From an uncultured Bacilli bacterium (GTDB lineage: Bacteria; Bacillota_I; Bacilli_A; RF39; UBA660): 62,861 nt of DNA. Positions 9,085 through 62,861 of this stretch are shown here, piece by piece (the first letter of the stretch is position 1; each line of letters opens with the position of its first letter). The position numbers and the translations under genes are program-made. The notes under the pieces are model-generated. The model made no database searches and was not told the origin of the DNA. It worked only from the letters and a program-made list of their open reading frames with translations. Location of the stretch: positions 1-62,861 of the forward strand of contig CANPVU010000003.1 of the NCBI GenBank assembly GCA_947581765.1, given 5' to 3'.

Positions 9085-9130
9085 AAGTAAAAAAATTTTT
9101 TATTAGTCATATAATTATATAGGTGATGAC

Positions 9131-9690: not shown

Positions 9691-9707
9691 TATATTTTGG
9701 TGATATT

Positions 9708-10244: not shown

Positions 10245-10267
10245 TCTTTAAGTTTTTACTCTTTTTT
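10233..10267 (+). terminator. Rho-independent terminator after rsmD
   Basis: Stem agagtaaaa (10233-10241) pairs with ttttactct (10254-10262), followed by TTTTT. Confidence 0.55.
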
Positions 10268-10290
10268 GATATAATAAGGTAGTAAGGATA

Positions 10291-12411: not shown

Positions 12412-12419
12412 GAGGACAT

Positions 12420-13787: not shown

Positions 13788-13877
13788 TTATAATATCTCT
13801 TAATAATATTCATATTCTTGAATATCTATAAGAGATATTTTTTTTATAAAAAAAATCAAGATGAACTTGATTATATT

Positions 13878-14534: not shown

Positions 14535-14633
14535 ATTATCACCACCTCTATTATACTATATTTTGAATTATAAATAAATAAATCTTAGTAGTAAACATGT
14601 AAAAAATATGCTATTATATATATGGTGATTTGT

Positions 14634-15704
14634 ATGGAAAAGGAAATACTATCTAAAGTAATAGAACTTATTACTATTCCTTTTTTAGTAGTTGTTATAA
14701 TTACACCTTTGATAAAAAAAGTTGCGTATCATGTAAATGCGTTAGACATTCCAAATGAGCGTAAAGTTCATAAAGTACCAATTCCTAGATTAGGTGGATT
14801 AGGAATATTTATGGGGTTTTTAGTGGGATATATGATTTTTGGTGAACATACTGCACTTATGAATTCTATTTTAATAGGTAGTTTTATACTTATTATTACT
14901 GGAATGATTGATGATATAAATCCTCTAAAACCATTACCTAAATTTTTGGGTCAGTTTATATCGGCACTAGTTGTTTGCTTTTATGGTGGAATGTTAATTA
15001 AAGATATAGATGCATTTGGCATATATATAAATTTTGGATTTTTCGCTTATCCACTTACTATATTCTTTATATTAGGTTGTATTAATTGTATGAATTTTGT
15101 AGATGGATTAGATGGATTAGCTAGTGGAATATCATCAATTTTCTTTTTAACAATTGGTATAGTTGCTGCATGTAAGTGTCAACTTGATTTAGCTTTTATA
15201 CTTACATTTATAATGCTTGGATGTTGTTTAGGCTTTTTACTATATAATTTTCATCCGGCTAGTATATTTATGGGAGATAGTGGATCTATGTTTTTAGGAT
15301 TTATTATGTCTATTATAACTATGCTAGGATATAAGAATGTAATGACTTCATCTATGATTATTCCACTTTTATTACTTAGTGTTCCAATACTAGATACAAT
15401 ATTTGCTATATTAAGAAGAAAATTAAAGGGAGAAAGCATATCTAAACCAGATAAGTCACATATTCATCATCAATTTTTAAGAAGAGGTTTTTCCCAAATA
15501 GGTACAGTAATTACTATATATATTATTACAGGTTTGTTTGCAACTGCATCACTAATATATGTATTAGTTAATAATATTCTTGGATATATTATATATGGTA
15601 TATTATTAATTGGATTTATTGTATTTGCTTTAAAAACAGATATATTATTTAGTAAAGATAAGGATAAGGATAAAGATAAAAAAAAGAAAAAGATAGCTAA
15701 TTAA
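14634..15704 (+). CDS. tagO: Undecaprenyl-phosphate GlcNAc-1-phosphate transferase (MraY/WecA/TagO family, GT4)
   Basis: Motifs NERKVHKVPIPRLGG, IDDINPL, NFVDGLDGLA and FMGDSGSMFLGF. The start is moved to 14634 because the extended -10 at 14609-14617 places the transcription start after the track ATG at 14622. Confidence 0.85.
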   Translation: MEKEILSKVIELITIPFLVVVIITPLIKKVAYHVNALDIPNERKVHKVPIPRLGGLGIFMGFLVGYMIFGEHTALMNSILIGSFILIITGMIDDINPLKPLPKFLGQFISALVVCFYGGMLIKDIDAFGIYINFGFFAYPLTIFFILGCINCMNFVDGLDGLASGISSIFFLTIGIVAACKCQLDLAFILTFIMLGCCLGFLLYNFHPASIFMGDSGSMFLGFIMSIITMLGYKNVMTSSMIIPLLLLSVPILDTIFAILRRKLKGESISKPDKSHIHHQFLRRGFSQIGTVITIYIITGLFATASLIYVLVNNILGYIIYGILLIGFIVFALKTDILFSKDKDKDKDKKKKKIAN

Positions 15705-15732
15705 AATATAATAAAGAAGTAAGAGGTGTTTT

Positions 15733-18402
15733 ATGAAAGAAAAAATATTTTCGGTTATTATTCCTGTATACAATGTTGAAGAGTATTTAGAACAAACTGT
15801 AGAAAGTATTATTAATCAAACTGTTGGTTTTGAGAATATAGAGTTAATTTTAATAAATGATGGTTCTACTGATAATAGTGAAAAGATTTGCTTAGAGTAT
15901 AAGGATAAATATCCAGATAATGTTGTATATATTAAACAGGAAAATAAAGGAGTATCAGCAGCTAGAAATAATGCTTTAAAATATGTTAGTGGTAAATATG
16001 TAAATTTTTTAGATAGTGATGATATTTGGGATAATGATGCATTTGAAAAAGGATTAAAATTATTTGAACAAAATACTCAAATATGTGCAGTTATTTATCC
16101 ATTAAAATTTTTTGAAGCTTCAAATAAATATCATCCACTTCATTTTATGTTTAAAAATAAGAAAAATACCACTGTTAATATATTAGAAGATTATCAATAT
16201 ATTAAACTTTCATCATGTTCTACTATTTTTAAATCAGAAGTATTAAAGGGTAGAGAATTTAATACTAAATTAAAAATATCAGAAGATTGTAGACTCGTTA
16301 CCGAAATATTTTTAGATAATCCAAATATTGGAGTTGTATGTGATAGTAATTACAATTATAGAAAAAGACTTTCAAATTCTTCAACTATTCAAACATCATC
16401 TAGTAAAAGAACATGGTATATAGATACACCTGTACTTTGTCATAAATATATAGCAGATTTATCAAAAGAAAAATATGGAAAAGTAATAGATTATGTACAA
16501 TTTTTACTTGCATATGACCTTCATTGGAGAATGAATGAAAAAATAATAGATGATTTAACAGAAAAAGAGAAAAAAGATTATTTAGATATTATGCACTCTT
16601 TAGTAAGGGAAATAGATGATAAAATAATTATTGACTTTCCTGGTATGAATTTAATGCAAAAAATGTATATGTTAGCATTTAAATATGAAAATAAAAACAT
16701 ATTTGAAATAAAAGATGATTATTTTTATTGTAATGACAATGAATTTTATATGATTAATAATCTTTATTTAACTGTAGATAATATTGTATTAAATAATGAT
16801 TTTATAGATATATATGGTAGACAAATAGTTATTAATAATATACTTGATAAAGTATATGTAAAAACAGATTATGCAAATGTTAATTTTGAATATTATGAAT
16901 TGGATAAAAAACATGCAGATAAAGAAACTATTGATAATAAATATCGATATAGTATAAAAGGTATACATGCTAAAATAGATTTAAGTAAAACTAAAACATT
17001 TAATTTTATGTCTAAGACTAGCGATAAAGAATTTTTAATTAAAGCAATCTTCTCTTATAATTCAATATTAAATGATCATTTTTTCTCACTATATTTAAGA
17101 ACTGATAATTATTATTTAAAATATATAAAATCAAAACAAAGTTTTTATGTATATAAAAAAGGATTTAAAAATAGGGCATTATTAGAGTTAAAATGTGATT
17201 TTAATTTAATAAAGCGCTTTAAAATAAATAGTTTAATATATAGAATATGCGGTTATATATCTAAACTTATTCATAGAAAACCTATATGGTTAATTTCAGA
17301 TAGAATTCAAATTGCAAGGGATAATGGACAAGCTTTTTTTGAGTATTTAATAAATCAAAAAGATTTACCTGTAAAACCATATTTCATATTATCTAAGAAT
17401 GCTAATGATTATAAAGCATTAAAAGCAAAGTATAAAAGAAAATTATTATGTCATAATAGCTTTAGACATAAAATGTTACATTTAGCAGCATCAAAAATAA
17501 TATCTGCTCAAGCAGATAATTATGTTACAAATTTATTTGGAAATGGAAAGTATTATCTTGGTGATTTATATAATTTTGAATTTGTTTTTTTACAACATGG
17601 TATAACTAAGGATGATTTATCACCTTGGCTTAATATTAATAATAGAACTATAGATATGTTTGTTACAGCATCTTCATATGAATATAACTCATTTACATCA
17701 GGTGAATATAAATATAATTTTCCAAAAGAATGGATAAAATTAACTGGCTTTGCTAGATTTGATAAATTAATAGATGATAATGTAAAGAAAGAAAAAACAA
17801 TACTAATTATGCCTACTTGGCGAAATAATCTAGTTAGTTTACTAGATAAAAAAACTGGTGAAAGATTGTATGATTTAGCATTCAAAGAAACAGATTATTT
17901 TAAATATTATAATGAGTTAATAAATAATGAAAGATTATTAAAATATATTAGTAAAAAAGGGTATAAGATAAGATTTATACCACATGTTAATATGATGCAA
18001 CAAATTAGGGATTTTAAAACAAATGAATATGTTGAAATTGTTAGTACTTCAGTTAATTATACAGAAGAATTTCAAAAAAATAGTTTATTAATAACTGATT
18101 ATTCAAGTGTATTTTTTGATTTTTGTTATTTAAATAAACCAGTTATTTATTCACAATTTGATTCTGATACATTTTTTACAGGACAAGTTTATGATAAAGG
18201 ATATTTTTCATATGAAAAACATGGATTTGGTCCTATATGTAAAACGATTAATGAGACTGTAGATAATATTATTGAAATTATAGATAACGATTGCAAGTTG
18301 AATAAAAAATATAAAAATAAAATAGATAAATTTTACAAATATCATGATAAAAATAATTGTAAAAGAATATATGATGAAATAATAAATCTAGATAAAAAAT
18401 AG
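15733..18402 (+). CDS. Bifunctional GT2 glycosyltransferase / CDP-glycerol glycerophosphotransferase (TagF-like)
   Basis: N-terminal FSVIIPVYNVEEYL, INDGSTDNS, NKGVSAARN and LDSDD match GT2. C-terminal LQHGITKDD, PTWR and ITDYSSVFFDF match the TagB/TagF family. Confidence 0.85.
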   Translation: MKEKIFSVIIPVYNVEEYLEQTVESIINQTVGFENIELILINDGSTDNSEKICLEYKDKYPDNVVYIKQENKGVSAARNNALKYVSGKYVNFLDSDDIWDNDAFEKGLKLFEQNTQICAVIYPLKFFEASNKYHPLHFMFKNKKNTTVNILEDYQYIKLSSCSTIFKSEVLKGREFNTKLKISEDCRLVTEIFLDNPNIGVVCDSNYNYRKRLSNSSTIQTSSSKRTWYIDTPVLCHKYIADLSKEKYGKVIDYVQFLLAYDLHWRMNEKIIDDLTEKEKKDYLDIMHSLVREIDDKIIIDFPGMNLMQKMYMLAFKYENKNIFEIKDDYFYCNDNEFYMINNLYLTVDNIVLNNDFIDIYGRQIVINNILDKVYVKTDYANVNFEYYELDKKHADKETIDNKYRYSIKGIHAKIDLSKTKTFNFMSKTSDKEFLIKAIFSYNSILNDHFFSLYLRTDNYYLKYIKSKQSFYVYKKGFKNRALLELKCDFNLIKRFKINSLIYRICGYISKLIHRKPIWLISDRIQIARDNGQAFFEYLINQKDLPVKPYFILSKNANDYKALKAKYKRKLLCHNSFRHKMLHLAASKIISAQADNYVTNLFGNGKYYLGDLYNFEFVFLQHGITKDDLSPWLNINNRTIDMFVTASSYEYNSFTSGEYKYNFPKEWIKLTGFARFDKLIDDNVKKEKTILIMPTWRNNLVSLLDKKTGERLYDLAFKETDYFKYYNELINNERLLKYISKKGYKIRFIPHVNMMQQIRDFKTNEYVEIVSTSVNYTEEFQKNSLLITDYSSVFFDFCYLNKPVIYSQFDSDTFFTGQVYDKGYFSYEKHGFGPICKTINETVDNIIEIIDNDCKLNKKYKNKIDKFYKYHDKNNCKRIYDEIINLDKK

Positions 18403-18476
18403 TTAGTTATTGTAAAAGATTATTCGGTTTGATATACTTAAGATAAAGTTTACAGTATAGAAAAGAGTGTGTTATT

Positions 18477-19472
18477 GTGAAAAAAAATATTATTGATATT
18501 GAAACTGCCAAAGATTTATTAAAAATAAAAAAAACTATTCTTTATTTAGTTATTCCTTGCTACAATGAAGAAGATGTTCTACCTATAACTACTAAGGCTT
18601 TAGATGAGAAGATGAATGATTTAATAAAAAATAAGAAAATATCTTCTAAAAGTAAAGTTTTATATGTAGATGATGGTTCTAAAGATAATACATGGAATTT
18701 GATAGAAAAGATACATAGTGAAAACGAGTTGTTTTGTGGTGTAAAGTTATCAAGAAATAAAGGACATCAAAATGCACTATTAGCTGGTTTAATGAGTGCT
18801 AAAGGACATAGTGATATAACTATAAGTATGGATGCTGATTTACAAGACGATATTGGTGTTATTGATAAAATGTTAGAAGAATATGAAAACGGCTCTAAGA
18901 TTGTATATGGGGTTAGAAGTTCAAGAAAAAAAGATACATTTTTTAAAAAATTTACTGCAGAAGGCTTTTATAAATTTATGCATTTAATGGGAGTAGAAAT
19001 AGTGTTTAATCATGCTGATTGTAGACTTATGAGTAAAGAAGCTCTTGATGCTTTAGAGAAGTTTAATGAAGTTAATTTATTCTTAAGAGGTATTGTTCCT
19101 CAAATAGGTTATAAAACTTCTATAGTTTATTATGAAAGAAATGAACGTGCTGCTGGAAAATCAAAATATCCATTAAAGAAAATGTTAAAATTTGCTATAG
19201 AAGGAATAACATCATTTAGTGTTGTACCACTTAAAATGATTACATCTATAGGATTTATTATGTTTTTAATTAGTTTTTTAGTAATTATATATTCAATAAT
19301 TGTAAAAATTTTAGGACAAACTGTATCAGGGTGGACATTTATTGTTTCATCAATTTGGTTAGTATCAAGTATTCAGATGTTGTCCTTAGGAATAATTGGT
19401 GAGTATATTGGAAAAATATATCAAGAAACAAAAAGAAGACCAAAATATATAATTGAGAAGGAATTAATGTAA
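18477..19472 (+). CDS. Polyisoprenyl-phosphate glycosyltransferase (GT2, CsbB/GtrB-like)
   Basis: VIPCYNEE, VDDGSKDNT, RNKGHQNAL and DADLQD motifs plus two C-terminal TM helices. Confidence 0.85.
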   Translation: MKKNIIDIETAKDLLKIKKTILYLVIPCYNEEDVLPITTKALDEKMNDLIKNKKISSKSKVLYVDDGSKDNTWNLIEKIHSENELFCGVKLSRNKGHQNALLAGLMSAKGHSDITISMDADLQDDIGVIDKMLEEYENGSKIVYGVRSSRKKDTFFKKFTAEGFYKFMHLMGVEIVFNHADCRLMSKEALDALEKFNEVNLFLRGIVPQIGYKTSIVYYERNERAAGKSKYPLKKMLKFAIEGITSFSVVPLKMITSIGFIMFLISFLVIIYSIIVKILGQTVSGWTFIVSSIWLVSSIQMLSLGIIGEYIGKIYQETKRRPKYIIEKELM

Positions 19473-19891
19473 TGAGATTTTTTGAAATATATAAAAAATA
19501 TAAAGAAGGTATCAATTATTTAATATTTGGAGGATTAACTACTTTATTATCTTTAGCAACATATTACATTTTAACATTAACATTCTTAAATCCTAAACAT
19601 GCTATTGAACTTCAAATAGCAAACATACTATCTTGGATTGTTGGTTTTCTTTTTGCATATTTTACAAATAGAAAATATGTATTTGAAAGTAAAAATACTA
19701 AATCAAAAGAAGAATTTTTTAAATTTTTTTTATCTAGAATATTTACATTAATATTAGATATGTTAATAATGTTTATATTTGTTACATTACTTCATTTAAA
19801 TAATAAATTAATGAAAATTATATCTCAAGTTATGGTTATTGTATTCAACTATATACTTAGTAAATTTGTTGTATTTAAAAATAATAATTAG
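19472..19891 (+). CDS. GtrA-family membrane protein
   Basis: Four TM helices with NYLIFGGLTTL...FAYFTNRKYVF...NYILSKFVVF, typical of GtrA. TAATG overlap with the csbB-like gene. Confidence 0.85.
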   Translation: MRFFEIYKKYKEGINYLIFGGLTTLLSLATYYILTLTFLNPKHAIELQIANILSWIVGFLFAYFTNRKYVFESKNTKSKEEFFKFFLSRIFTLILDMLIMFIFVTLLHLNNKLMKIISQVMVIVFNYILSKFVVFKNNN

Positions 19892-19940
19892 ATAATTAAT
19901 ATAAAATATAAGAATAAATTTATGATTGGGGCGATTAATA

Positions 19941-21641
19941 ATGAAATATTTATACAACTTGACAGTAATAGTACCATGTTATAATTGCTGTAAATATGTA
20001 AAAAAAACAATTAATTCATTATTAGAACAAGATTATGATTTACAAAAAATTGAAATTTTATTAATCAATGATGGTTCAACAGATAATACACTAAAAATAA
20101 TAAAAAAATATGAATCTAAAAATATAAAAGTTGTAGATAAGAAAAACGAAGGGGTAAGTGCTACTAGAAATCTTGGAATGAAAATGTCAAAAGGAAAGTA
20201 TATTTTATTTTTAGATTCAGATGATTATTTATCTCGTAATACTATACGAGATATAATCAATTTTTTTGATGCTCATTATGATGAAATAGATTTATTAACA
20301 TACCCAATGTTATATTTTTATCCAAGCGGAAGAACGATGAGGCATTCTAGATATAAGAAACTTTATATAAATGGAACGAATGTTTATGATTTAGATGAAT
20401 TTTATTATCTTATTCAACCAACACTTAATGTTTGTATTAAAAATGGATTAGGATATGAATTTGATGTTAACCAGTATTATGCTGAAGATGAAATGTTTAA
20501 TATAAAAATTTTAATGAATAAAAAGAAAATAGGGTTTGTTAAGGAAGGATTATATTATTATAGAAGACATAATGAAAGTACCACTGCAAATCGTTATCAT
20601 ATGAATTTAGAAAATATATATAGTTTTTATGAAAAATATCAACAAATATATAAAAATGATAAATATATACAAGCAACAATAATGAATAATCTAAATTGGC
20701 GTATACGTGAGGATTGCTTAATTCCTCCTGATAAAGAAAGTATTAATTCATGTATAGAAAGTATAAGAAGAAAACTAAGTATTATAGATTTTAGTTTGTT
20801 TAAAGACCATGTACTAGATAACAAGAAAGTTTTATTAGAATTACTTTCTTTAAGTCAAAAAAAATGTATAATGGAAAAATATGATGATAAGTATTCATTA
20901 ATAAGTGATGGTAAAGTTTTAATAAATAATATAGATACTACGAATATAAATATTCGTTTAAATAGAATTTGTAAAGAAAAGGATAATATTACTTTATATG
21001 GATACCTTATTACTCCTTTATTTTATACAGGAAAAATAAAATTATTTTCAAAAATAGAATATAGAAATGGTAAATGTGAAACAAAAAAAATAGATTTATA
21101 CAATATACTAGATTATCAAGAAAACTATAAAAAAGAGTATAAATTATGTTTAAAATGCGATAAAATAAGTGAAATATCATTTTATTGTGAATTAGAAAAA
21201 GAAAAAATATTATTGGATATAAAACCAATTGATTGGTGTAGTAAAGTCAAAATTTATGATGATTCTATAGTAGAAATTAATAATAATATTAAAATTTATA
21301 AGAAAAAATTGTTTGATAAATTTAAAACTAGATTTTTTTACTCCTCAAATAAATTTAAATTTAAATTGATTAACCTTGTATCCTTTATAACTAGAAAAGG
21401 TTCAAAATATCATGTGTACTTTGGTGATAAAAATTCTTTAATTTATCAAGAATATATAGACGATAAAAATCATAAGAAGTTATTTTATGATAGGGCATTT
21501 GGAACAAATTATAAATTTGTAATATTAAATTGTGATAAGATAATCACTAATAAAAGTATTAAATTAGTTTTACCTTTTGGTAAAATGAGAAAAAATTATG
21601 TACAAGCAAGTCATTTTGAAATAATATTAAAAGATAATTAA
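19941..21641 (+). CDS. GT2 glycosyltransferase with uncharacterised C-terminal domain
   Basis: LTVIVPCYNC, INDGSTDNT, NEGVSATRN and LDSDD motifs. The ATG at 19941 is preferred over the TTG at 19926. Confidence 0.8.
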   Translation: MKYLYNLTVIVPCYNCCKYVKKTINSLLEQDYDLQKIEILLINDGSTDNTLKIIKKYESKNIKVVDKKNEGVSATRNLGMKMSKGKYILFLDSDDYLSRNTIRDIINFFDAHYDEIDLLTYPMLYFYPSGRTMRHSRYKKLYINGTNVYDLDEFYYLIQPTLNVCIKNGLGYEFDVNQYYAEDEMFNIKILMNKKKIGFVKEGLYYYRRHNESTTANRYHMNLENIYSFYEKYQQIYKNDKYIQATIMNNLNWRIREDCLIPPDKESINSCIESIRRKLSIIDFSLFKDHVLDNKKVLLELLSLSQKKCIMEKYDDKYSLISDGKVLINNIDTTNINIRLNRICKEKDNITLYGYLITPLFYTGKIKLFSKIEYRNGKCETKKIDLYNILDYQENYKKEYKLCLKCDKISEISFYCELEKEKILLDIKPIDWCSKVKIYDDSIVEINNNIKIYKKKLFDKFKTRFFYSSNKFKFKLINLVSFITRKGSKYHVYFGDKNSLIYQEYIDDKNHKKLFYDRAFGTNYKFVILNCDKIITNKSIKLVLPFGKMRKNYVQASHFEIILKDN

Positions 21642-50672: not shown

Positions 50673-52034
50673 ATGAATAATTTAGAAAATAATTATTATG
50701 CAAAATGGATTACTACAGAAGAATTAGTAAAAAATAAAAAAATATTAGAGATAGGACTTCAAGATACTATACAAACAATGGGATTACCTATTGGAAGTAA
50801 TAAAGATAAAATAGTAGTTGATACATCATTAGATAGTACACTTGTTATAGCAGGTGCAGGAAGTGGAAAAACACAATGTTCAATATTACCTATGCTATAT
50901 CAAGCTGCAAATAGTGGTGAATCTGTATTAATAACAGATAAGACAAAAGAATTATATCAAACAACAGCATCATTATATAAAAATAATGGATATAATGTAA
51001 TTAATATAAATCTTAATAACACTAATATAGGTAATTGTATAAATATATTTGAATTACCAAAAAAATTATATGATAATAAGAAATATGATGAAGCATATTA
51101 TATTACTAAAAAAATATTTTCATATATATTAAAAGAAGAAAATAAAAATGTAGATCCTTTTTGGTCTAATACTGCATCTGATTATATTACTGGTGTAACA
51201 ATGAGTTTATATGATAAAAATATACCATTAAGCCAAATTAACTTTAAAACAATATCTAAATTCTCATCAGAATATAATAGTGAAGAAGTTATAAACTATT
51301 TAGAATCTATAGAAAAAGATAGTATTGCATATAAAAATATTTGTGGTACTTTTCTAGCACCATCAGAAACTAAAGCATCTATAATATCAGTATTAAATGA
51401 AAAATTATCTACTATATATAGTAAAGAAAATTTAGTAGCACTTTTAAGTAAAAGTGATTTTAATATAGAAAATATAAGAGATGAAAAAACTATATTATAT
51501 ATTTCATATGATGAATCTGATTTATTACAATCTGCATTATTTGATATTATATTTGAAGAAGTATATTTTATTGTAAATAGTAAAAAGGGTGAAAAAGCAT
51601 TTAATTTTATTATAGATAATATGGATTATAATGTTAAACCAATTGATAATTTAACTAGTATAATAAATAATTGTAGAAATAATTATATTAGATTTATTAT
51701 GTATATAAGTGGTTTTGATACATTATCTAAAATATATGGGGAAAGTAATGTAGGAACATTAAAGTATGAATTTTCTAATATATTATATTATATATCTAAT
51801 GAATTAAATACTATAAATTTTATATCTGAATATTGTGGTAAAAAGAGTGATACTTCATATTTAGTTAGTCCAGAAATGTTAAGAAGGATGCCAATGTTTA
51901 GTAGTATTTTACTAAAATCTAGAGTAATGCCATATTATTGTGTGCAAGTTCCTTTTTATGAAATGAATATTAATATAGAAAAAACAAATTTAAATGAAAA
52001 TAATTTACCTAATGTAGATGTAATTAATTTATAA
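50673..52034 (+). CDS. Soluble VirD4/TraG-like (type IV coupling protein family) P-loop protein, orphan
   Basis: Walker A LVIAGAGSGKTQCSILPML, VLITDKTKELY, DPFWSNTASDY, and R..YIRFIMYISGFDTLSKIYGE parallel T4CP blocks. There is no N-terminal TM helix. The Walker B position reads FIIDNMDY. Confidence 0.55.
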   Translation: MNNLENNYYAKWITTEELVKNKKILEIGLQDTIQTMGLPIGSNKDKIVVDTSLDSTLVIAGAGSGKTQCSILPMLYQAANSGESVLITDKTKELYQTTASLYKNNGYNVININLNNTNIGNCINIFELPKKLYDNKKYDEAYYITKKIFSYILKEENKNVDPFWSNTASDYITGVTMSLYDKNIPLSQINFKTISKFSSEYNSEEVINYLESIEKDSIAYKNICGTFLAPSETKASIISVLNEKLSTIYSKENLVALLSKSDFNIENIRDEKTILYISYDESDLLQSALFDIIFEEVYFIVNSKKGEKAFNFIIDNMDYNVKPIDNLTSIINNCRNNYIRFIMYISGFDTLSKIYGESNVGTLKYEFSNILYYISNELNTINFISEYCGKKSDTSYLVSPEMLRRMPMFSSILLKSRVMPYYCVQVPFYEMNINIEKTNLNENNLPNVDVINL

Positions 52035-55032: not shown

Positions 55033-55106
55033 GCGGGTGTAGTTCAATGGTAGAACTCCAGCCTTCCAAGCTGATAACGTGGGTCCGATTCCCATCACCC
55101 GCTCCA
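55033..55106 (+). tRNA. tRNA-Gly (anticodon UCC), encoded CCA, with non-canonical T-loop
   Basis: Hand-folded cloverleaf: acceptor GCGGGTG/CACCCGC, D arm GTTC-AATGGTA-GAAC, anticodon arm CCAGC-CTTCCAA-GCTGA, T arm GTGGG-TCCGATT-CCCAT, then T-CCA. There is a C27-A43 mismatch, and C replaces the near-universal U55. Confidence 0.8.
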
Positions 55107-55116
55107 TTTAAAGATT

Positions 55117-55147
55117 AAATCAGTCTTAATTTGACTGATTTTTTTTT
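55117..55147 (+). terminator. Rho-independent terminator of tRNA-Gly (inside direct repeat copy 1)
   Basis: Stem aaatcagtc (55117-55125) pairs with gactgattt (55133-55141) around loop ttaattt. The T-run extends to 55147. Confidence 0.7.
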
Positions 55148-55156
55148 GTGCTAAAA

Positions 55157-55181
55157 CGGACCCACGTTATCAGTTTGGAAG
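55157..55181 (-). other. Inverted 25-nt copy of the tRNA-Gly anticodon-loop to T-loop segment
   Basis: cggacccacgttatcagtttggaag is the reverse complement of tRNA positions 55063-55087, matching 24 of 25 nt. Confidence 0.9.
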
Positions 55182-55251
55182 TGATAAAGTATATCCATTT
55201 TGACTCTTCTTTTTTAATACTAATTTCTTTAATCTTATTATTAATTTTTAT
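55170..55251 (-). pseudogene. Remnant of a second copy of the 259-aa nuclease gene (3-prime end joined out of frame to an internal fragment)
   Basis: Positions 55170-55215 equal the last codons of the intact gene (KKKSQNGYTLSLPN*). Positions 55221-55251 encode IKINNKIKEISIKK, against IKINNKIKGISIKK in the intact gene (57341-57385), matching 26 of 31 nt. The junction falls at a shared c-tttttt-aatac microhomology. Confidence 0.45.
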
Positions 55252-55268
55252 CCTCCACTCTTCTTCTT

Positions 55269-56552
55269 TTATTTATTATCTTCATTGTTCTCATCATCAT
55301 TAATATCATTATTAAAATAATTAGGAAAATCAAACTTTGGTAATTCTATTTCTGGTAAAACTATATTGGGTAAATCAAAGTTTGGCATTTTAACCTTCGG
55401 AATCATATTAGCTATGTTTGGTATCATTTTAGAAACAGGATTTACAATTTCATTTAATTTTTCACTAAATTCTTTTAATGGTTGAGTAACTAAATTTATG
55501 TTTTCTAAAATTGGTTTAACTGTTTCTCTCATTGTCTTTGCAAGTCGTTCAAAAGATTCCTGTTGTAATTCAATATTTTTGTATACAAAATCTTTTTCTT
55601 CAGTAATTTTAATTGCTATATCTAATGATTTATTTGTTTTCTTTAAAATCTCCAAACAATTTTTGTATTGAGTTTCACTTATAAATTTGCAATGTGCTAT
55701 ATTATTTCTGAAAACTCTAATGTCATTAAAAATTATTTGAAAATCGTCTGCAATTTTTTTATCACCAAAAAATCGCTCCCAATCAGATTTATAATTACAT
55801 AATTCAAAAGCTTTTCTTATTTCAGAATCACTCAACTTACTCAAATCTTTGTTTTCCTTTAGAAAATTTTGCAACTTTATCGTTTCTTGTGGAGTTATTG
55901 ACTTAGAAAACAATAATGTTTCAATATCATGATAATCAAGTGAATAAAATCCTAACTTTATATAGCAATCTTTTTTAGAAATTGTTTGATTCTTTTGACT
56001 ACTGGCTTTTTGTTTTAGATTTGCTTGAAAATCTTCACTGGTAGTTGCAGAATAATATTCTAAATTAAAATTTAAAGTATATACAACAAAAAGTATTTTT
56101 CTTAACTTTCTTTCAAATTCATTAAGATATGGAAATAATTTATTGCAGTAATATTCAGAAACATAATCATAAGATAATATAGATATAAAATCTTGTTCAA
56201 AAACACTTTTACTATTTATTAATTTAGAATTTACTAAATTCAAAATATTAACAGCATCTTGCTTATTTTTGGTTTTAACTATTATATCTAAATAATAATT
56301 AGACCATACATTATGATATTTAAAAAAAACTTCTTTTTGCGTATTATTGTAATCAATTTTAAATGCTCCTGTTTTAATAAAGATAAATTCCTCATCTCTA
56401 TTATCAAAATTAATTTCGTGAAAACATTTTTTTAATAATTGCTCAAATGATGGAGGCAAAGATACGACAATTCGATTTTCTTTTGAATTTTTCTTGAATT
56501 TATTTTTTTCTTTTTCTCTTTTAAGAAATATATAACTGTTTTTAAATTTCAT
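55269..56552 (-). CDS. HEPN-domain protein (Swt1-like/Abi-type), candidate abortive-infection RNase
   Basis: NEFERKLRKIL helix, followed about 140 aa later by FRNNIAHCKF (the R-x4-H HEPN signature). It has its own AGGAGG RBS and promoter. The C-terminal tail carries short P(N/K)(I/F) repeats. Confidence 0.6.
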   Translation of the reverse strand: MKFKNSYIFLKREKEKNKFKKNSKENRIVVSLPPSFEQLLKKCFHEINFDNRDEEFIFIKTGAFKIDYNNTQKEVFFKYHNVWSNYYLDIIVKTKNKQDAVNILNLVNSKLINSKSVFEQDFISILSYDYVSEYYCNKLFPYLNEFERKLRKILFVVYTLNFNLEYYSATTSEDFQANLKQKASSQKNQTISKKDCYIKLGFYSLDYHDIETLLFSKSITPQETIKLQNFLKENKDLSKLSDSEIRKAFELCNYKSDWERFFGDKKIADDFQIIFNDIRVFRNNIAHCKFISETQYKNCLEILKKTNKSLDIAIKITEEKDFVYKNIELQQESFERLAKTMRETVKPILENINLVTQPLKEFSEKLNEIVNPVSKMIPNIANMIPKVKMPNFDLPNIVLPEIELPKFDFPNYFNNDINDDENNEDNK

Positions 56553-56578
56553 TATTACCTCCTAATTCTCTTGGTATA

Positions 56579-56607
56579 ATTATATCATTTCGTAAGAAAT
56601 GTCACAA
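56579..56607 (-). promoter_or_regulatory. Promoter of the HEPN gene
   Basis: On the minus strand: TTGTGA (56602-56607), 17 nt, TATAAT (56579-56584), preceded by TGA (extended -10). Confidence 0.5.
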
Positions 56608-56711
56608 GAAATTTAAAAAATATTGTGTTTAAGTTAAAAATCGGTTATATATGATTTATCAGGCGGTTATGAATTTTATGTTTGCTAAGTGTTTATAACT
56701 TAACAAGCAAT

Positions 56712-56832
56712 CGCTCCATTTAAAGATTAAATCAGTCTTAATTTGACTGATTTTTTTTGTGCTAAAACGGACCCACGTTATCAGTTTGGAAGTGATAAAG
56801 TATATCCATTTTGACTCTTCTTTTTTAAATAC
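56712..56832. repeat. Direct repeat copy 2 (121 bp)
   Basis: See copy 1. It includes cgctcca, the terminator hairpin (56729-56758), the inverted tRNA fragment (56768-56792) and the last 17 codons of the nuclease gene. Confidence 0.9.
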
Positions 56833-57560
56833 ATATTTTCTATAATATCATCAAAGAGATTATACCACTTTACTTGTATGCAAAATCGATCTTTTTCATA
56901 TTTACTATTATAATTTAAACATCTGTTTTTAGGTTGAATAGTAAGTACACTAAAATGAACAGTTGATGAATAGTTATCTTTTTTACTTAAGATAATATTA
57001 ATAATATCTTCTTTTGTTATAAAAACAAAATCATTTACTTCTCCATAAACTAAAGCAGAAATAGAAAAAACCGAATTATTACCTCGAAGGATAAATCTAT
57101 CAATAGCTTTTATTAATAATTTTTGATTATTTATTTCACTATTAATCTTATCAATTTTATCTTGATTTTTAACTTTATATTCCTCAGTTGATACTCTTTT
57201 TAAACCTTTGCCGTTAGTAGTACCATCTGCATAGTGAAACTTTAAATACTCTATTATATTATCACGTGATATATTATTAGTTATTAAAAAATTAATAAAT
57301 TCCGTAATTGGTTCAACATGTACAGAGTTCCTAATTCCTTTTTTAATACTAATCCCTTTAATTTTATTATTTATTTTAATTAAAATATCAGTTTTTTGTT
57401 TTAAGTGATTACGCCAACACTTAATTATTGAATTTTCATTTTCATTTGGAAAAATTGTTTCTATTAAATCTCTGCATAGAGGAGTCAATTCCTTAATAAC
57501 TTTATTATTTAATTCTAAAACGAAAGCAAATTCATTATCAAATCCGTTTATTTCACTCAT
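56781..57560 (-). CDS. PD-(D/E)xK-type endonuclease, MspI/HinP1I-like restriction-enzyme candidate
   Basis: KTDILIKINNKIKGISIKKG fits a D-x13-S-x-K catalytic core. C-terminal LTIQPKNR...FCIQVKWYNLFD recalls the HinP1I/MspI family blocks (from memory, not aligned). AGGAGGTGA RBS. Confidence 0.5.
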   Translation of the reverse strand: MSEINGFDNEFAFVLELNNKVIKELTPLCRDLIETIFPNENENSIIKCWRNHLKQKTDILIKINNKIKGISIKKGIRNSVHVEPITEFINFLITNNISRDNIIEYLKFHYADGTTNGKGLKRVSTEEYKVKNQDKIDKINSEINNQKLLIKAIDRFILRGNNSVFSISALVYGEVNDFVFITKEDIINIILSKKDNYSSTVHFSVLTIQPKNRCLNYNSKYEKDRFCIQVKWYNLFDDIIENMYLKKKSQNGYTLSLPN

Positions 57561-58053
57561 TTTATCACCTCCTACTATTATTATTATATATAAGTCTTTA
57601 ATTTCCTTTTTTTATAAATAATAATTTAGAATTATTAAAATTAGAAATAGAACTTAGAAATGAAAAAGTTATTTATGAATGTGTTAGAACTGCAGTTTTT
57701 TTGCGTGTTGATGAAAAGTTTCCAAATAAACTTAAAAAATATAGTTAACGAAAGCATTGATAATATTTTTAAAATTTTATATGATATTATCAGGTGATAA
57801 ATAGGAAACAAAATATTAAGATTATTATATTATGTTTTAATTTTATCTATTGTTTTGTTTCATAATAGGTTTATTTTGTAAATCAAGCATCTCATTTTTT
57901 GAACTAAATTTAGGCTTTGCAGTTTTGATTGCATTTACTAAAATTGGAATTTTTACTTGTATTTTAGCTTTATATATACAAACACTGATTATATTGATTC
58001 TTAGACAGTTAATAGGATTATAAAATACAAAATAACGGAAGGGTATAATAGTA

Positions 58054-58653
58054 ATGATAAAAAGATATACAGAAAATGAAATTGATAAGCTAGTTAAAAT
58101 ATTAAAAAATGATGGAGTAATAAGTGTACCAACTGATACTGTTTTTGGAATATGTGCTAGAATTAATTCTTTAGTAGCACACGATAAATTAATTAAAGTA
58201 AAAAGTCGTCCTATAAATAAATCGTTTCCTGTTATGTGTGCAAATGAAAAACAGATAGAAACTATTGCAATCGTTAATGAAGTGGCAAAAAAATTAATTA
58301 AAGCTTTTATGCCTGGACCAATTACTTTAGTTTTAAAAAAGAATAATAACTTGCCAGAATATGTTACTAATGGTAAAGAAACAATAGCTATTAGGATGGC
58401 TCCTACAGTTTTTATTGAAGAATTAATTTCAAAAACAGGATGTCCAATATTTATGACTAGTGCCAATCAAAATGGAGAAATAGAATGTACGAGTTTGGAT
58501 GAAATAGAAAATAAATGTCCAATGCTTGATGGAATGCTAGAAGGGGAAGTATCTTATTCTATGGCAAGTACAATTGTAGATTGTACTTCTAATAAGGTTG
58601 AAATTTTAAGAGAAGGTCCAGTTACATTAGAACAAATTAAAAAAGTTTTATAA
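58054..58653 (+). CDS. tsaC: L-threonylcarbamoyladenylate synthase (YrdC/TsaC family)
   Basis: Family motifs VISVPTDTVFGICA, KSRPINKSFPVM, PGPITLVL, IRM and TSAN. Confidence 0.85.
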   Translation: MIKRYTENEIDKLVKILKNDGVISVPTDTVFGICARINSLVAHDKLIKVKSRPINKSFPVMCANEKQIETIAIVNEVAKKLIKAFMPGPITLVLKKNNNLPEYVTNGKETIAIRMAPTVFIEELISKTGCPIFMTSANQNGEIECTSLDEIENKCPMLDGMLEGEVSYSMASTIVDCTSNKVEILREGPVTLEQIKKVL

Positions 58654-58739
58654 TCTTTAAAAAGAATGATTATTTTATATAACGTTTAAAAAGTAATAGA
58701 GGGTGTTATAATAATATTTATTAATTGGAGGTATAAATA

Positions 58740-59381
58740 ATGGAAAATGAAGTAAATCAATCTTTAAAATATTGGAATAATTTACATTCAAATTATGATA
58801 GAAGTGATATAAAATATGATGATTGGTTAGAAAAATTTCAAGAAATAATTGATGCATGTAAAACACCAATTTTAGATTTAGGGTGTGGAAGTGGTAATGA
58901 TACATTATATTTAATAAACAAAGGAAAAAAAGTTATACCTTGTGATCAATCAGAGAATGCTATAAAAAATATAAAGAAAAATTTTCCTGAAATTTTCGAT
59001 TGTAAATGCTTCAATATGTTAGAAGGGTTCCCATTTCCTGATAATTATTGTGATTTAATAATCTCAGATTTATGTTTACACTATTTTAGAGAAAAAGATA
59101 CATTTAAAATAATAAATGAAATTAGAAGAATACTTAAAGATAATGGACACTTAATTTTTAGATTGAATTCTATAAATGATATTAACCATGGCGCAGGTTC
59201 TGGTAGTGAGATTGAACATCACTTATATACTACACAAGATAATAGACTTAAAAGATTTTTTGATGAGAAGGATATATTATATTTCTTTAAAGATTTTCAA
59301 ATTGAATATTTAAAGGAAGAAACAATGTCAAGATATAAGTTAGAAAAAAGATTATATTTAGGATGCATAAAAAAATATTGA
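58740..59381 (+). CDS. Class I SAM-dependent methyltransferase (small-molecule type)
   Basis: Motif I ILDLGCGSGNDTLYL, an acidic residue after beta-2 (IPCDQS), and DLIISDLCLHY. At 213 aa it has none of the DNA-methyltransferase motifs. Confidence 0.75.
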   Translation: MENEVNQSLKYWNNLHSNYDRSDIKYDDWLEKFQEIIDACKTPILDLGCGSGNDTLYLINKGKKVIPCDQSENAIKNIKKNFPEIFDCKCFNMLEGFPFPDNYCDLIISDLCLHYFREKDTFKIINEIRRILKDNGHLIFRLNSINDINHGAGSGSEIEHHLYTTQDNRLKRFFDEKDILYFFKDFQIEYLKEETMSRYKLEKRLYLGCIKKY

Positions 59382-59408
59382 TACTTTTACAATCAATATT
59401 TTTTATTA

Positions 59409-60065
59409 TTATTTTAATTTCAATTTTTTATTTTTTTCACCAATATTATTCATAATTGCATAATTTGAAACAGCCTTAAAATTATCATCATAAGGATATG
59501 TTTGTTGTCCAAACAAAAGCCACATAGTAGACCAAGAAACACCAGGTTTAAGTAATTCTTGAACTTTTTTATTTTGCATAGTTTTATTTTCTTCTTGATT
59601 ATTTAAATCTACACAACCTTCTTCATCATACAATTTACATTGTAAATCACATTCTAATTTATCACATTGGTATGCAAACATTGCTTCTTTAGTACTATGA
59701 GAATCAAATTCTAAAAATAATTGTTCTATTTCTTTACCATCTAGTAATCCATCTAATATTTTACTAACTGCTTCATGTTCTATTTTTTCTTTTTCTTCTT
59801 TAGATATATCAAATTGTGTTAAATCTCCAATAACAGTCTCTCCAAGTTCATGAACAGCTATCATAAATAATACTTTCATAATATCTACATCATATTGATA
59901 TTCTGATTTCATAGCAATAGCTAACATTTGAACTCCAAAGATATGTTCAGCAACACTTTCAATTCTTTCTCTTTGTACGTTCCAATTTTTCCAACCTGTT
60001 CTGATAATATTTTTTAATCTATTACATACAACATAGTATTTTATTACATTTTGTTCTTTAGACAT
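59409..60065 (-). CDS. HD-domain phosphohydrolase (YfbR-like 5-prime-deoxynucleotidase family)
   Basis: RTGW, ESVAEHIFGVQMLA and VHELGETVIGD motifs. The ATG at 60065 follows an AAGGAAGTGA RBS. Confidence 0.75.
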   Translation of the reverse strand: MSKEQNVIKYYVVCNRLKNIIRTGWKNWNVQRERIESVAEHIFGVQMLAIAMKSEYQYDVDIMKVLFMIAVHELGETVIGDLTQFDISKEEKEKIEHEAVSKILDGLLDGKEIEQLFLEFDSHSTKEAMFAYQCDKLECDLQCKLYDEEGCVDLNNQEENKTMQNKKVQELLKPGVSWSTMWLLFGQQTYPYDDNFKAVSNYAIMNNIGEKNKKLKLK

Positions 60066-60141
60066 AAAATTCACTTCCTTCTTATTAGGGTAGTATACCA
60101 TTTTAGATAGTTTAAAAACAAGTAATAAAAATATATTTCAG

Positions 60142-60170
60142 TTGAAAATGATAGTTGTATAGGGTATAAT
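60142..60170 (+). promoter_or_regulatory. Near-consensus sigma-A promoter with long downstream leader
   Basis: TTGAAA (60142-60147), 17 nt, TATAAT (60165-60170). The next RBS-preceded start codon on this strand is at 60403. Confidence 0.5.
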
Positions 60171-60380
60171 AAAGATAAAATTTAGGTAGGTATAAATCTT
60201 CTGTTTTATTTAATAAATGTTACTGAAGATGTACACTATTGTGCTTATAAAAAATGTTTCTAAAAATATATTGATTGTAGATTATAATATTGATTTAGTG
60301 ATGGTACATATATTTATGACTTTAATATACTTGATAATAAAAGTAATATTTTTGGAATAACAAAGGTTTGAACTGTTAAA

Positions 60381-60810
60381 GAAATAAGTGAGGAGGGTTG
60401 TGATGAAACCAATATTGCAGGAAATAGTGAAGATATTGAAGACTTTGCCAAAAATGAATAGAGATTATGGAATTGGAATAATAAACCCTCTAGATACAGA
60501 GGAACAAGCATTGAAAATGCTAAACTACTTGAAAGAGAACAGAGACAATCCAGAATTAATGAGAATAGACAGATTAATGAAAAAGGCATTCGAAATAAGT
60601 GAGGAGGGTTGTGATGAAACCAATATTGCAGGAAATAGTGAAGATATTGAAGACTTTGCCAAAAATGAATAGAGATTATGGAATTGGAATAATAAACCCT
60701 TTAGAAACAGAGGAACAAGCATTGAAAATGCTAAACTACTTGAAATAGAACAGAGACAATCCAGAATTAATGAGAATAGACAGATTAATGAAAAAGGCAT
60801 TCGAAATAAG
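60381..60810 (+). repeat. Tandem duplication, 2 x 211 bp plus 8-bp third copy of the junction (gaaataag)
   Basis: Unit 1 is 60381-60591 and unit 2 is 60592-60802, with three mismatches. gaaataag recurs at 60381, 60592 and 60803. Confidence 0.9.
60403..60672 (+). CDS. Small protein (89 aa) whose C-terminus is a frameshifted read into the duplicated unit
   Basis: AGGAGGG RBS at 60391-60397. MKPILQEIVKILKTLPKMNRDYGIGIINPLDTEEQALKMLNYLKENRDNPELMRIDRLMKKAFEI, then 25 residues from reading unit 2 out of frame (211 is not a multiple of 3). Confidence 0.55.
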   Translation: MKPILQEIVKILKTLPKMNRDYGIGIINPLDTEEQALKMLNYLKENRDNPELMRIDRLMKKAFEISEEGCDETNIAGNSEDIEDFAKNE

Positions 60811-60823
60811 AAAAGAGAACTAG
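60614..60823 (+). pseudogene. Second copy of the small gene, interrupted by a TAG at codon 45
   Basis: Same RBS and ATG as copy 1. GAG in copy 1 is TAG at 60746-60748. The ancestral 69-codon frame would end ...KKAFEIRKEN at 60821-60823. Confidence 0.6.
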
Positions 60824-60838
60824 GCAATAGTTCTTTTT
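60814..60838 (+). terminator. Rho-independent terminator after the duplicated small gene
   Basis: Stem gaacta (60817-60822) pairs with tagttc (60828-60833) around loop ggcaa. It is extendable by 3 pairs and followed by a T-run. Confidence 0.55.
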
Positions 60839-60937
60839 ATTTTGATGAGAATGCAAAAAGCTATGAAGACTAAAAAAATAAATAAAATTGAATTTTCATG
60901 TTTTTTAATTGCATGTTATTAATTTTTCTTTTATTTA

Positions 60938-61504
60938 CTAATTTTTTTCATTAATATAATACTCTTCTAATGTAATATTTTCTTCATATAATTTTCTTGC
61001 TAAAGGAAGACCTACAAATCTATAATGCCATGGTTCAAATTTATAACCAGTAATATCTTCTTTATTCTTAGGATATCTTAGTATAAATCCATACTTATAT
61101 GAATTATTAAATAACCATTTAATAGCATCATAACTATCGTCTATTTGTGTTATATAACATCCATTTATAATGAGCGCTACATCAATAGCAAGACCTGTTT
61201 GATGTTCACTATATCCAGGTAATGCTACTATATCTTGTGTTTCTTCTATACCTTTTTCTTTTACATATAAATCCCATATATCTTGTTGCATTTTATAACT
61301 TCTATATCCACTATCAATTAATATATCATATCCTTCTTCTTTAGCAGATTTTTTCATCATAATAAAGTAAGGAACTATATCTTGATTTATTTTAGGATTA
61401 TCATTTAAATATATATTATTTATTGTAACTAGATTATTTGGAATATAATTTTTATTTAGAGGATGGTGTTTGTTTATGAGTATATCGTAATTCATATTTA
61501 ACAC
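60938..61504 (-). CDS. M15-family D-alanyl-D-alanine carboxypeptidase (VanY-like)
   Basis: Zinc/active-site motifs SGYRSYKMQ, SEHQTGLAIDV and EPWHYRFVG. Confidence 0.85.
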   Translation of the reverse strand: MLNMNYDILINKHHPLNKNYIPNNLVTINNIYLNDNPKINQDIVPYFIMMKKSAKEEGYDILIDSGYRSYKMQQDIWDLYVKEKGIEETQDIVALPGYSEHQTGLAIDVALIINGCYITQIDDSYDAIKWLFNNSYKYGFILRYPKNKEDITGYKFEPWHYRFVGLPLARKLYEENITLEEYYINEKN

Positions 61505-61606
61505 CTCTTTTATATAATACTCATAAAAATATTTATTAATCTATTATTATTTGATTATATAAATATCTATTTGTTACAATAAAAATTAATAAAATTTCAT
61601 TTTTAT

Positions 61607-61635
61607 TTGAAGTTATGTTTTTATTAGGGTATAAT
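61607..61635 (+). promoter_or_regulatory. Sigma-A promoter of the dehydrogenase gene
   Basis: TTGAAG (61607-61612), 17 nt, TATAAT (61630-61635). Confidence 0.5.
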
Positions 61636-61652
61636 AAATATGGAGGTAGAAT

Positions 61653-62678
61653 ATGAAATGTGTTGCGATTAAAGATGTAAAACAATTTGAAATTACAGAT
61701 ATAAATGAACCAGTACCTAATGGTAAAGATGTTATTATTGATGTAAAAAAAACAGGTATATGTGGATCTGATATACATTATTGGGTAGGTGGAAATCCTA
61801 AAGGATTAGTTATGGGACATGAGTTTTGTGGAGTAGTAACTGATCCAGGAGCTAGAAGTGATTTAAAAGTAGGAGATAGAATAACAGCTCTTCCAATTTC
61901 TCCATGCGGTAAATGTCAAGCATGTTTAACTGGAAATCCACAATATTGTGCTAATACATGGAGTGAGGCAGTAGGTTTATCTATAAATAATCCTGGTGGT
62001 TTAGCACCTAAATTAGCTGTTAGACCAGATATGGTATTTAAAGTACCTGATACTATGTCAGATGAAGAGGGTGCTATGGTAGAACCAACTGCAGTAGGAT
62101 TACATGCTATTCATTTAGCTGATATAAAAGTAGGAGATAAAGTATTAGTTGTAGGTGGGGGAATAATTGGATTAGTATCTGCAATGTTTGCTAAAAAAGA
62201 AGGTGCTAGTTTAGTTGTTGTATCAGAAACTAATGAGTCAAGAGGAAAAAAAGCTGTTAGCTTAGGTGTAGCTGATGAGTGGTATGATGCAAAGTCTAAA
62301 GATATGGTAAATGACTTAATGCAAAAAACTAATGGTGGATTTGATATTGTTATTGAGTGTGTAGGAAATGCACCAGCAGTAAATAGTTCTATTTCATTAG
62401 TAAAACAAGGTGGAGAAGTTGTATTAGTTGGTGTATCAATGGAACCAGTTTCTACATATACTGTAATGGCAGTAATGAAAGAACTTGTTATAAAAGGTGC
62501 TATTGGTTATACTAAAACTGAATTTGAAACTTGTATAAATTTAATGGCTAATAAACAAATAGATATGATGAAATTTGTAGATGATATAGTACCATTTGAA
62601 AAAGTACAAGAATCTTATGAAAGGTTAACATCTGGTACAGATTCAGCAGTTAAAATATTAGTTGATCCAAATATGTAA
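61653..62678 (+). CDS. Zinc-dependent medium-chain alcohol/polyol dehydrogenase (sorbitol/threonine/butanediol dehydrogenase family)
   Basis: GICGSDIHYW, GHEFCGVV, the structural-zinc motif CGKCQACLTGNPQYC, and the Rossmann motif VVGGGIIGL. Confidence 0.85.
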   Translation: MKCVAIKDVKQFEITDINEPVPNGKDVIIDVKKTGICGSDIHYWVGGNPKGLVMGHEFCGVVTDPGARSDLKVGDRITALPISPCGKCQACLTGNPQYCANTWSEAVGLSINNPGGLAPKLAVRPDMVFKVPDTMSDEEGAMVEPTAVGLHAIHLADIKVGDKVLVVGGGIIGLVSAMFAKKEGASLVVVSETNESRGKKAVSLGVADEWYDAKSKDMVNDLMQKTNGGFDIVIECVGNAPAVNSSISLVKQGGEVVLVGVSMEPVSTYTVMAVMKELVIKGAIGYTKTEFETCINLMANKQIDMMKFVDDIVPFEKVQESYERLTSGTDSAVKILVDPNM

Positions 62679-62702
62679 AATTATAAAGAAAAGTTTAAAA
62701 AT

Positions 62703-62731
62703 CTACGCAAAATAAATTGTGTAGTTTTTTT
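62703..62731 (+). terminator. Rho-independent terminator
   Basis: Stem ctacgca (62703-62709) pairs with tgtgtag (62718-62724), including one G-U pair, followed by a 7-T run. Confidence 0.6.
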
Positions 62732-62861
62732 ATCATTTATATTATTACTATTGATTTTAAATAGTTATAATTATATATTATATACTTAAGTTTGACAGTT
62801 GTAGAATGCAAAAAATCTCATTAGCCCTTATAAATAAAGGGAGAAATGAGACTTTTTTTGT

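Follow-up and report, generated by a model that had tools for sequence, protein, structure and literature searches.

A HEPN gene between 121-bp repeats beside tRNA-Gly in an uncultured Bacilli bacterium: a probable stranded fragment of an integrative mobilizable element

A single gene for a HEPN protein, enclosed by two 121-bp direct repeats beside a tRNA-Gly gene, is the subject of this work. It is located in DNA of an uncultured Bacilli bacterium (GTDB lineage Bacteria; Bacillota_I; Bacilli_A; RF39; UBA660), in a stretch of 62,861 nucleotides (GenBank assembly GCA_947581765.1, contig CANPVU010000003.1, positions 1 to 62,861 of the forward strand), the whole of which is referred to below as the window. 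The G+C content of the genome is about 24%, and the best matches of its pyrG (85%) are to metagenome-assembled genomes (MAGs) of uncultured gut Bacilli or 'Tenericutes'. An earlier note, made from the sequence alone, had considered the arrangement a one-gene cassette gained or lost by recombination at a tRNA-proximal site. Our analysis points to a relic, probably a fragment of an integrative mobilizable element (IME), rather than to a cassette able to move by itself.

Genes and repeats beside tRNA-Gly

The two repeats, R1 next to the tRNA gene and R2 on the far side of the HEPN gene (Table 1), are copies of one 121-bp sequence (R) and differ solely in the lengths of two homopolymers. A repeat search returned an exact block of 47 nt (55100-55146 and 56712-56758) at a start-to-start spacing of 1612 and another of 78 nt (55140-55217 and 56751-56828) at a spacing of 1611; the shift corresponds to nine T residues in the first copy against eight in the second. 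The other difference, AA at 55216-55217 against AAA at 56827-56829, falls in the outer boundary zone. Each half of the 121-bp unit is present exactly twice in the window, and matches were obtained in 0 of 100 dinucleotide-preserving shuffles. Because of where the tRNA-Gly gene ends, as determined with ARAGORN, both copies open with its last 7 nt (CGCTCCA), and both continue through a hairpin resembling an intrinsic terminator, whose counterpart in R2 lies at 56729-56753. The repeats with their two length differences, their start within the tRNA, the hairpin and the presence of only one promoter-equipped gene between them had been described correctly in the earlier note, and its view that the near-identity of the copies reflects either a recent event or homogenisation is upheld. 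A transposon or a miniature inverted-repeat transposable element was ruled out, as there are only two copies in the window, with neither terminal inverted repeats nor a transposase.

A 28-nt inverted piece of tRNA-Gly, present in both repeats, had been overlooked. In R2 it provides the stop codon of the adjoining gene for a restriction-endonuclease-like (REase-like) protein, and such a piece stands at the stop codon of this gene in three species, i.e. in the window and in contigs L113 (6765-6795) and L111 (6765-6790). The tails of some REase-like homologs (P0134, P0135) resemble read-through of this piece. In a transcript reading through from the tRNA, a duplex of about 26 bp is predicted (-67 kcal/mol, z = -8).

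The REase-like protein belongs to a family of about 250 aa with 670 homologs. Homology within the family stops at ENMYLK and the final 8-20 residues are variable; the gene in the window is therefore complete, the repeat contributing nothing but its tail. In L113, a rabbit-gut MAG of another species, the protein is 83% identical, and its stop codon is followed by the inverted tRNA-like fragment, an A-run, the hairpin and the convergent tRNA-Gly(TCC) gene, all in one copy and without an insert. Thus, the 121-bp unit is the native spacer between the REase-like gene and tRNA-Gly, and its ancestral state is a single copy. The same spacer is found in L111, from a further species, where 17 nt of the tRNA 3' end separate it from an element bearing Rep_trans; the genes upstream of the REase-like gene differ between these loci. 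The Rep_trans-bearing element occupies tRNA-Gly of L111 at 6835-12765, at a site of the T-loop type. The region downstream of tRNA-Gly differs from species to species. When synteny was followed through pyrG in 80 species genomes, tRNA-Gly was near pyrG in L045 and L070 only, both of which lack R, the HEPN gene and the REase-like gene. R itself was found in 0 of the 175 fetched loci outside those of this species.

The HEPN open reading frame (ORF) is the sole long one between the repeats and is preceded by a promoter-like site, TTGTGA-17-TG-TATAAT, at 56607-56579. Its product has 361 homologs, one of which is named 'Swt1 family HEPN' by NCBI. Residues R282, N283 and H287 are invariant across 34 sampled homologs, down to 32% identity, and 27 of the 34 match Pfam PF18731 (Swt1-like HEPN; best E-value 1e-6), whereas the protein of the window itself has no Pfam match at E <= 0.01. 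In the AlphaFold model (predicted local distance difference test, pLDDT, 72) an N-terminal alpha/beta domain is followed by a helical region (141-345) and a disordered tail. A Foldseek search of this model against PDB gave nothing with E < 0.05 (RnlA was listed at a probability of only 0.08), and a PDB search by sequence was uninformative. No relatives were found among viral contigs and plasmids. Homologs at 47-66% identity recur beside genes of large serine recombinases, and one group of homologs is placed between a FokI-type restriction-modification (R-M) pair and GmrSD. The protein is most likely an RNase serving defence or element maintenance.

Table 1. Features of the tRNA-Gly locus, in coordinates of the window
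Feature	Position	Strand	Remarks
tRNA-Gly(TCC), CCA encoded	55033..55106	+	ARAGORN; last bases form half of attB
GCTCCAT core, unoccupied attB (tRNA/R1 junction)	55101..55107	+	7-nt core flanks the L003 element at exactly this position
Repeat copy 1 (R1)	55100..55220	+	native tRNA/REase-like spacer, here cut off from that gene
Intrinsic-terminator-like hairpin and T9 run (tRNA terminator) in R1	55117..55147	+	hairpin 55117-55141
Inverted partial tRNA-Gly (anticodon loop to T stem) in R1	55154..55181	-	26/28 complementary
Stump of gene 2 of the lost element	55209..55268	-	ribosome-binding site GGAGGA, start mutated to ATT, ~13 codons; aligns with post-HEPN sequence of L114
HEPN protein, 427 aa, Swt1-like family	55269..56552	-	R282-N-N-I-A-H287, predicted RNase motif
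Presumed outer end of the former element, attL-type arm	56553..56711	-	HEPN promoter-like site and ribosome-binding site; junction TGGAGCG/ATTGC
Repeat copy 2 (R2)	56712..56832	+	still joined to REase-like gene; core 56713-56719 is the orphan attL junction
Inverted partial tRNA-Gly in R2	56765..56792	-	gives REase-like gene its stop; second in-frame stop TAA follows
REase-like gene, 259 aa, full length	56781..57560	-	PADLOC REase_II, E = 4e-14; variable C-terminal tail encoded by R2

The layout is not an artefact of assembly, a possibility raised in the earlier note, since independent assemblies of the same species share it. A SPAdes contig from another sample, L003, representing a sister strain, spans both copies in identical order and is 99.76% identical to the window from the REase-like gene through R1. 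Two further SPAdes contigs, L004 and L005, end inside copy 1, 55 nt in. In other runs, Logan contigs terminate at the edges of the repeats, and two contigs of one run, L002 and L026, end exactly there; proteins identical throughout to the HEPN protein and to the 259-aa protein are encoded on contigs of other samples. The Logan contig L001 is 1641 bp long (1611 + 30), contains R and the HEPN gene, and its first 30 nt are the same as its last 30 nt, a self-closure compatible with an assembly-graph loop, a tandem array or a circle.

Mismatches between the window and L003 amount to 4/2460 (0.16%) from the REase-like gene through R1 (55100-57560) and to 43/5225 (0.82%) in the right flank (57561-62861). 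The lower divergence of the former segment may reflect a recent sweep or an allele transfer; these numbers are small. A different junction was found in L006 (run DRR855153), where the REase-like gene and R are followed by TGGAGCG/AGTGTCGTAGTTATCTACAA (L006 1068-1087; here and below a slash marks a junction). The 20 nt available match neither the HEPN unit nor the tRNA nor the element of L003, so that L006 represents a third junction type, and this third sequence at the same place indicates turnover at the site. As to occupied and empty alleles, a single R is present only in L113, another species; an empty, single-R allele of the present species was searched for and none was found.

The HEPN gene is not intact in all strains. 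In L003-L005, which come from three samples, an A7 run is shortened to A6 at codon 16, and the resulting frameshift leads to a stop after 39 codons (L003 11008-11130; window 56505-56515) and takes away the conserved N-terminal strand. This could be a sign of decay or of phase variation. The dN/dS ratio of 0.21 (nonsynonymous to synonymous substitution rates) between the HEPN genes of the window and of contig L114 indicates that the family is under purifying selection. The copy between the repeats appears dispensable, or variable, within the species, and in some strains, in the absence of its partner gene, the constraint on it is relaxed.

The tRNA-Gly 3' end as an integration site

In L003, an element of 7.9 kb (12470-20345) sits exactly between R1 and the intact tRNA-Gly gene. 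It encodes a 509-aa protein of unknown function, an ASCH protein, a C5 DNA methylase, a 278-aa protein, a Mob_Pre relaxase, a large serine recombinase of 611 aa and a 93-aa protein, after which tRNA-Gly follows. Its two junctions, AAATGGAGC/AATTG and CATATGGAGCG/GGTG, share ATGGAGC, which is GCTCCAT on the plus strand of the window. A related element is present in L115, from another organism (67-6665). There, the tRNA trailer and the junction TTTTGGAGCG/ATAAC are followed by a HEPN homolog, a 365-aa protein with a weak HD match, a relaxase, TnpV, a 606-aa serine recombinase and a 90-aa protein, and the inner end is joined to tRNA-Gly(CCC) at ..CGACGATTTTATCTT/ATGGAGC. The serine recombinases of L115 and L003 are 53% identical, and the inner arms of the two elements are clearly homologous. 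The small neighbouring proteins (90-97 aa) are 42-48% identical among the elements, with 48% between L115 and L003. In L175 (element 1311-7991), the outer junction CTATGGAGCG/ATAAC precedes the HEPN gene, a gene for a 366-aa protein, HD_3, a relaxase gene and TnpV, and at the contig end there is a truncated 491-aa ORF where L115 carries the recombinase. This element abuts the inner end of another one, and the two form a tandem pair.

The junction of the HEPN unit with R2, AAATGGAGCG/ATTGC (TGGAGCG/ATTGC, 56711/56712), lies at the same position as those of L003, L115 and L175. In all four cases it directly follows TGGAGC(G/A), the tRNA 3' end read on the reverse strand. These common junctions identify the extreme 3' end of tRNA-Gly as attB of mobilizable elements with serine recombinases. 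Only the first 7-8 nt of the repeat (GCTCCAT) act as the core in these elements, and the remaining 114 nt are host spacer. The insertion in L003 is a case of re-use, by a different element, of a presumably regenerated attB. With the Rep_trans-bearing element of L111 taken into account, tRNA-Gly is therefore a target of at least two integration systems. As a by-product, these comparisons delineate, in uncultured gut Bacilli, a family of mobilizable elements (recombinase of about 610 aa) which integrate at the CCA end of tRNA-Gly without damage to the tRNA, each bringing a new terminator hairpin.

The interior of the HEPN unit resembles one end of such elements. In L115 and L175, the HEPN homologs (64-65% identical) are the first genes inside the outer end, and the distance from the called HEPN start codon to the junction is 159 nt in the window, 107 nt in L115 and about 160 nt in L175. 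In L114, in which the HEPN protein is 91% identical, the next features are a ribosome-binding site and the start of an HD_3-like (HD-type) gene. After the HEPN stop, the window matches L114 through GTGGAGGATAAAAAT and on into the first codons, where ATG has become ATT, and then switches to R1. By these comparisons, the interior corresponds to the outer end of a serine-recombinase element followed by a stump of its second gene. No tblastn match to any of four serine recombinases and two relaxases was found in the whole window. Since both are absent, we call the unit a remnant and not a member of the family; the loss of the remainder of the element accounts for the missing recombinase.

The proposal of a one-gene cassette thus holds in part. 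Recombination at a tRNA-proximal site, a foreign interior and the absence of a visible recombinase were all confirmed. Movement of a cassette by itself through its 121-bp repeats was not borne out: the repeat is the native spacer seen in L113, the true site is the GCTCCAT core, and the HEPN gene is the end gene of a serine-recombinase element and still carries the stump of the next gene.

Origin of the HEPN unit

Plain integration duplicates the core alone; for a second 114-nt spacer to appear beside the tRNA, a further event is required. The most likely explanation, to which we assign a probability of roughly 0.55, is that the unit is a fragment of an IME with a large serine recombinase, left stranded by a small duplication. 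The ancestral locus would have consisted of tRNA-Gly, a single R and the convergent REase-like gene. An IME would have integrated between the tRNA gene and R, its order being the outer end, the HEPN gene, an HD-type gene, further genes including those of the relaxase and the serine recombinase, and the inner end. Subsequently, a microhomology-mediated tandem duplication would have copied R, the outer end, the HEPN gene and the first codons of gene 2, a block of about 1.6 kb, or about 2.1 kb if a deletion of 0.5 kb came after. Its breakpoints would lie in the 3' region of the REase-like gene and in the first codons of gene 2, with the joint at GTATT(T)AAAAAAG, and it would yield two attL sites and one attR. 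Excision of the intact element by its recombinase through the inner attL would then restore a clean attB, with R1 beside the tRNA gene, and leave behind R2, the orphan attL junction, the HEPN gene and the stump of gene 2, which is the layout of the window. The sequences themselves show the native state with one R, the use of the core by such elements, the derivation of the HEPN gene and the stump from an element, and the renewed occupation of the site in L003, whereas the duplication, the excision and the order of these events are inferred.

The sequence at the boundary between the stump and R1 is consistent with such a course. The microhomology junction probably lies inside 55209-55251, where the joint GTATTAAAAAAG matches both GTATTTAAAAAAG, from the tail of the REase-like gene, and GTATTACAAA, from gene 2 of L114. 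A novel joint with a short shared sequence is thus present, as is characteristic of microhomology-mediated tandem duplication. A reading of 55209-55251 as a relic of the REase-like gene (38/43 identity to 57338-57380) was downgraded, because L114 shows that the adjacent 25 nt are the ribosome-binding site and the start of gene 2 of the element; the two segments just happen to be alike. A REase-derived piece of 16 nt at the junction is still possible, as the last 16 nt of the stump are identical to 57338-57353 inside the REase-like gene, and either one microhomology junction or two may therefore be assumed.

Several points weigh against a stranded IME fragment. The intact parental element was not found in this species, and the duplication and the excision are reconstructions. 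Similarity of the outer arm (56660-56711) to that of L003 is marginal, with 89 of 2000 shuffles scoring equally well, and similarity to the arm of L115 is no better than that of shuffles. The zone 55209-55251 admits a reading with either one or two junctions. L001 could mean tandem amplification or a circle, not a simple two-copy state. Finally, insertion of a circle through homologous recombination would lead to the same layout.

This last route deserves attention first among the alternatives, even if we regard it as unlikely. A circle of 1.6 kb with R and the HEPN gene, arising by aberrant or RecA-mediated excision, might have been re-inserted at a single R, or a whole R-HEPN-R allele might have been imported by transformation or conjugation followed by allelic replacement; the unit may also pop out between the repeats. 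This view is close to that of the earlier note. Direct repeats of 121 bp are long enough for RecA, the identical 30-mers at both ends of L001 could reflect a circle, and a recent sweep of this allele would agree with the low divergence between the window and L003 in the segment from the REase-like gene to R1. However, a 1.6-kb circle would have no replication or transfer function, the cyclic Logan contig is possibly just a collapse of the repeat in the assembly graph, and the data contain, besides no single-R allele of the species, no circle junction distinguishable from the chromosomal one. Moreover, a serine-recombinase element would still be needed to account for the TGGAGCG junction and the stump of gene 2.

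A classical accretion of two related elements, in which R would be the tRNA-proximal arm of each and the REase-like gene the cargo of the older one, seems clearly less probable still. Tandem elements of the family are known from L175 and L003, decayed elements are well documented as building up at tRNA sites (PMC5704250), and the variability of the region downstream of tRNA-Gly between species would be in keeping with it. On the other hand, the inner arms in L003, L115 and L175 are quite different from R (..CGACGATTTT..ATGGAGC) and contain no R-like sequence. The REase-like gene recurs together with the R-type spacer in L111 and L113 despite differing upstream genes, and is itself a member of a large family; no third GCTCCAT core is present to the right of it.

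We consider it very improbable that R-HEPN-R is a functional module and not a scar, either as a defence gene whose copy number would be varied by RecA or with the tRNA-Gly look-alike acting as an RNA element. In the former case, a circle or a tandem array would account for the self-closure of the 1611-bp contig L001; in the latter, the 28-nt look-alike may pair with tRNA read-through transcripts, or serve as a decoy or target of a tRNA-directed HEPN RNase. Likewise very improbable is a local duplication that is old and fixed and has no link to mobile elements, with repeats homogenised by gene conversion: all five HEPN-reaching contigs of the species (L001-L005) do show the same arrangement, but the interior is element-derived, a recombinase junction and the boundary of R2 fall on the same base, the related species L113 has one R, and the sequence after R differs in L006.

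If the unit is a stranded IME fragment, the structure is a common kind of genomic scar and not a new type of gene cassette. It could be lost by homologous recombination between the repeats; such loss was not observed. This origin would explain how a lone defence-type gene comes to lie, without a recombinase, between long near-identical repeats at a tRNA gene, a layout easily taken for a new cassette. It would also suggest a route by which cargo of mobile elements becomes fixed: a small duplication across the att junction is followed by clean excision, so that the cargo stays and the integration site is re-opened.

Known systems and the neighbouring region

The concept of the cis-mobilizable element (CIME) reportedly goes back to Pavlovic et al. 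2004. Decay of integrated elements and their tandem accretion at att sites in tRNA genes, including the CIME concept, have been reviewed for IMEs (PMC5704250). The present locus is similar in that an element at a tRNA 3' end was stripped of the genes for recombination and transfer and a related element then integrated alongside, giving the order remnant, IME and tRNA in L003. In contrast to a CIME, which keeps both attL and attR, the window keeps only the attL-type junction (56711/56712), and its tRNA side consists of a duplicated host spacer and an intact attB, not of the inner arm of an element; therefore, a duplication or a homologous insertion is needed beyond decay.

The elements of L003, L115 and L175 fit the description of serine-recombinase IMEs of Firmicutes, e.g. 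Tn4451/TnpX and relatives. According to a review of 2017, the listed site-specific IMEs with serine recombinases disrupt dispensable protein genes, and every listed IME at a tRNA 3' end encodes a tyrosine recombinase (PMC5704250). The family described here differs from both groups, as its target is the CCA end of tRNA-Gly and the tRNA stays intact; the window itself is devoid of such machinery.

A separate comparison concerns genomic islands linked to tRNA genes by tyrosine integrases, in which the repeat is the 3' part of the tRNA, copied from attP. As in such islands, direct repeats including the tRNA 3' end flank foreign DNA by a tRNA gene. In the window, however, the repeat is made of 7 nt of tRNA and 114 nt of downstream host spacer, and there is no tyrosine integrase.

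Proteins of the Swt1-like/Abi2 HEPN clade have an Rx4H motif, and their bacterial members are predicted active RNases from R-M and abortive-infection contexts (Anantharaman et al. 2013, PMC3710099). The protein of the window shares this motif, which is invariant among the homologs. It differs from Swt1-like HEPN proteins (PF18731) in being below Pfam significance and in having an extra N-terminal alpha/beta domain and a disordered tail, and its activity is only predicted.

Among the surrounding genes, exact look-up of the DUF3267 neighbour gave no match, and that of Sua5 returned short contigs only. A gene of the HD_3/YfbR-like type (59409-60101, minus strand), 2.6 kb to the right, encodes a protein 81% identical to the product of a cargo gene of the L175 element, compared with 65% identity between the HEPN proteins of the window and L175. 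This may reflect exchange of genes between the elements and this chromosomal region. At 60388-60748 there are two near-identical small ORFs (MRRVVMKPILQEIVKILKTLPKMNRDYGIGIINPL...), about 211 nt apart, a local tandem duplication likewise present in L003. Finally, a 453-aa coupling protein of the VirD4/TraG type (PF02534, E = 1e-31) is encoded at 50673-52034, adjoining an AraC-type regulator and with no other transfer genes nearby; it may be a remnant of another mobile element.

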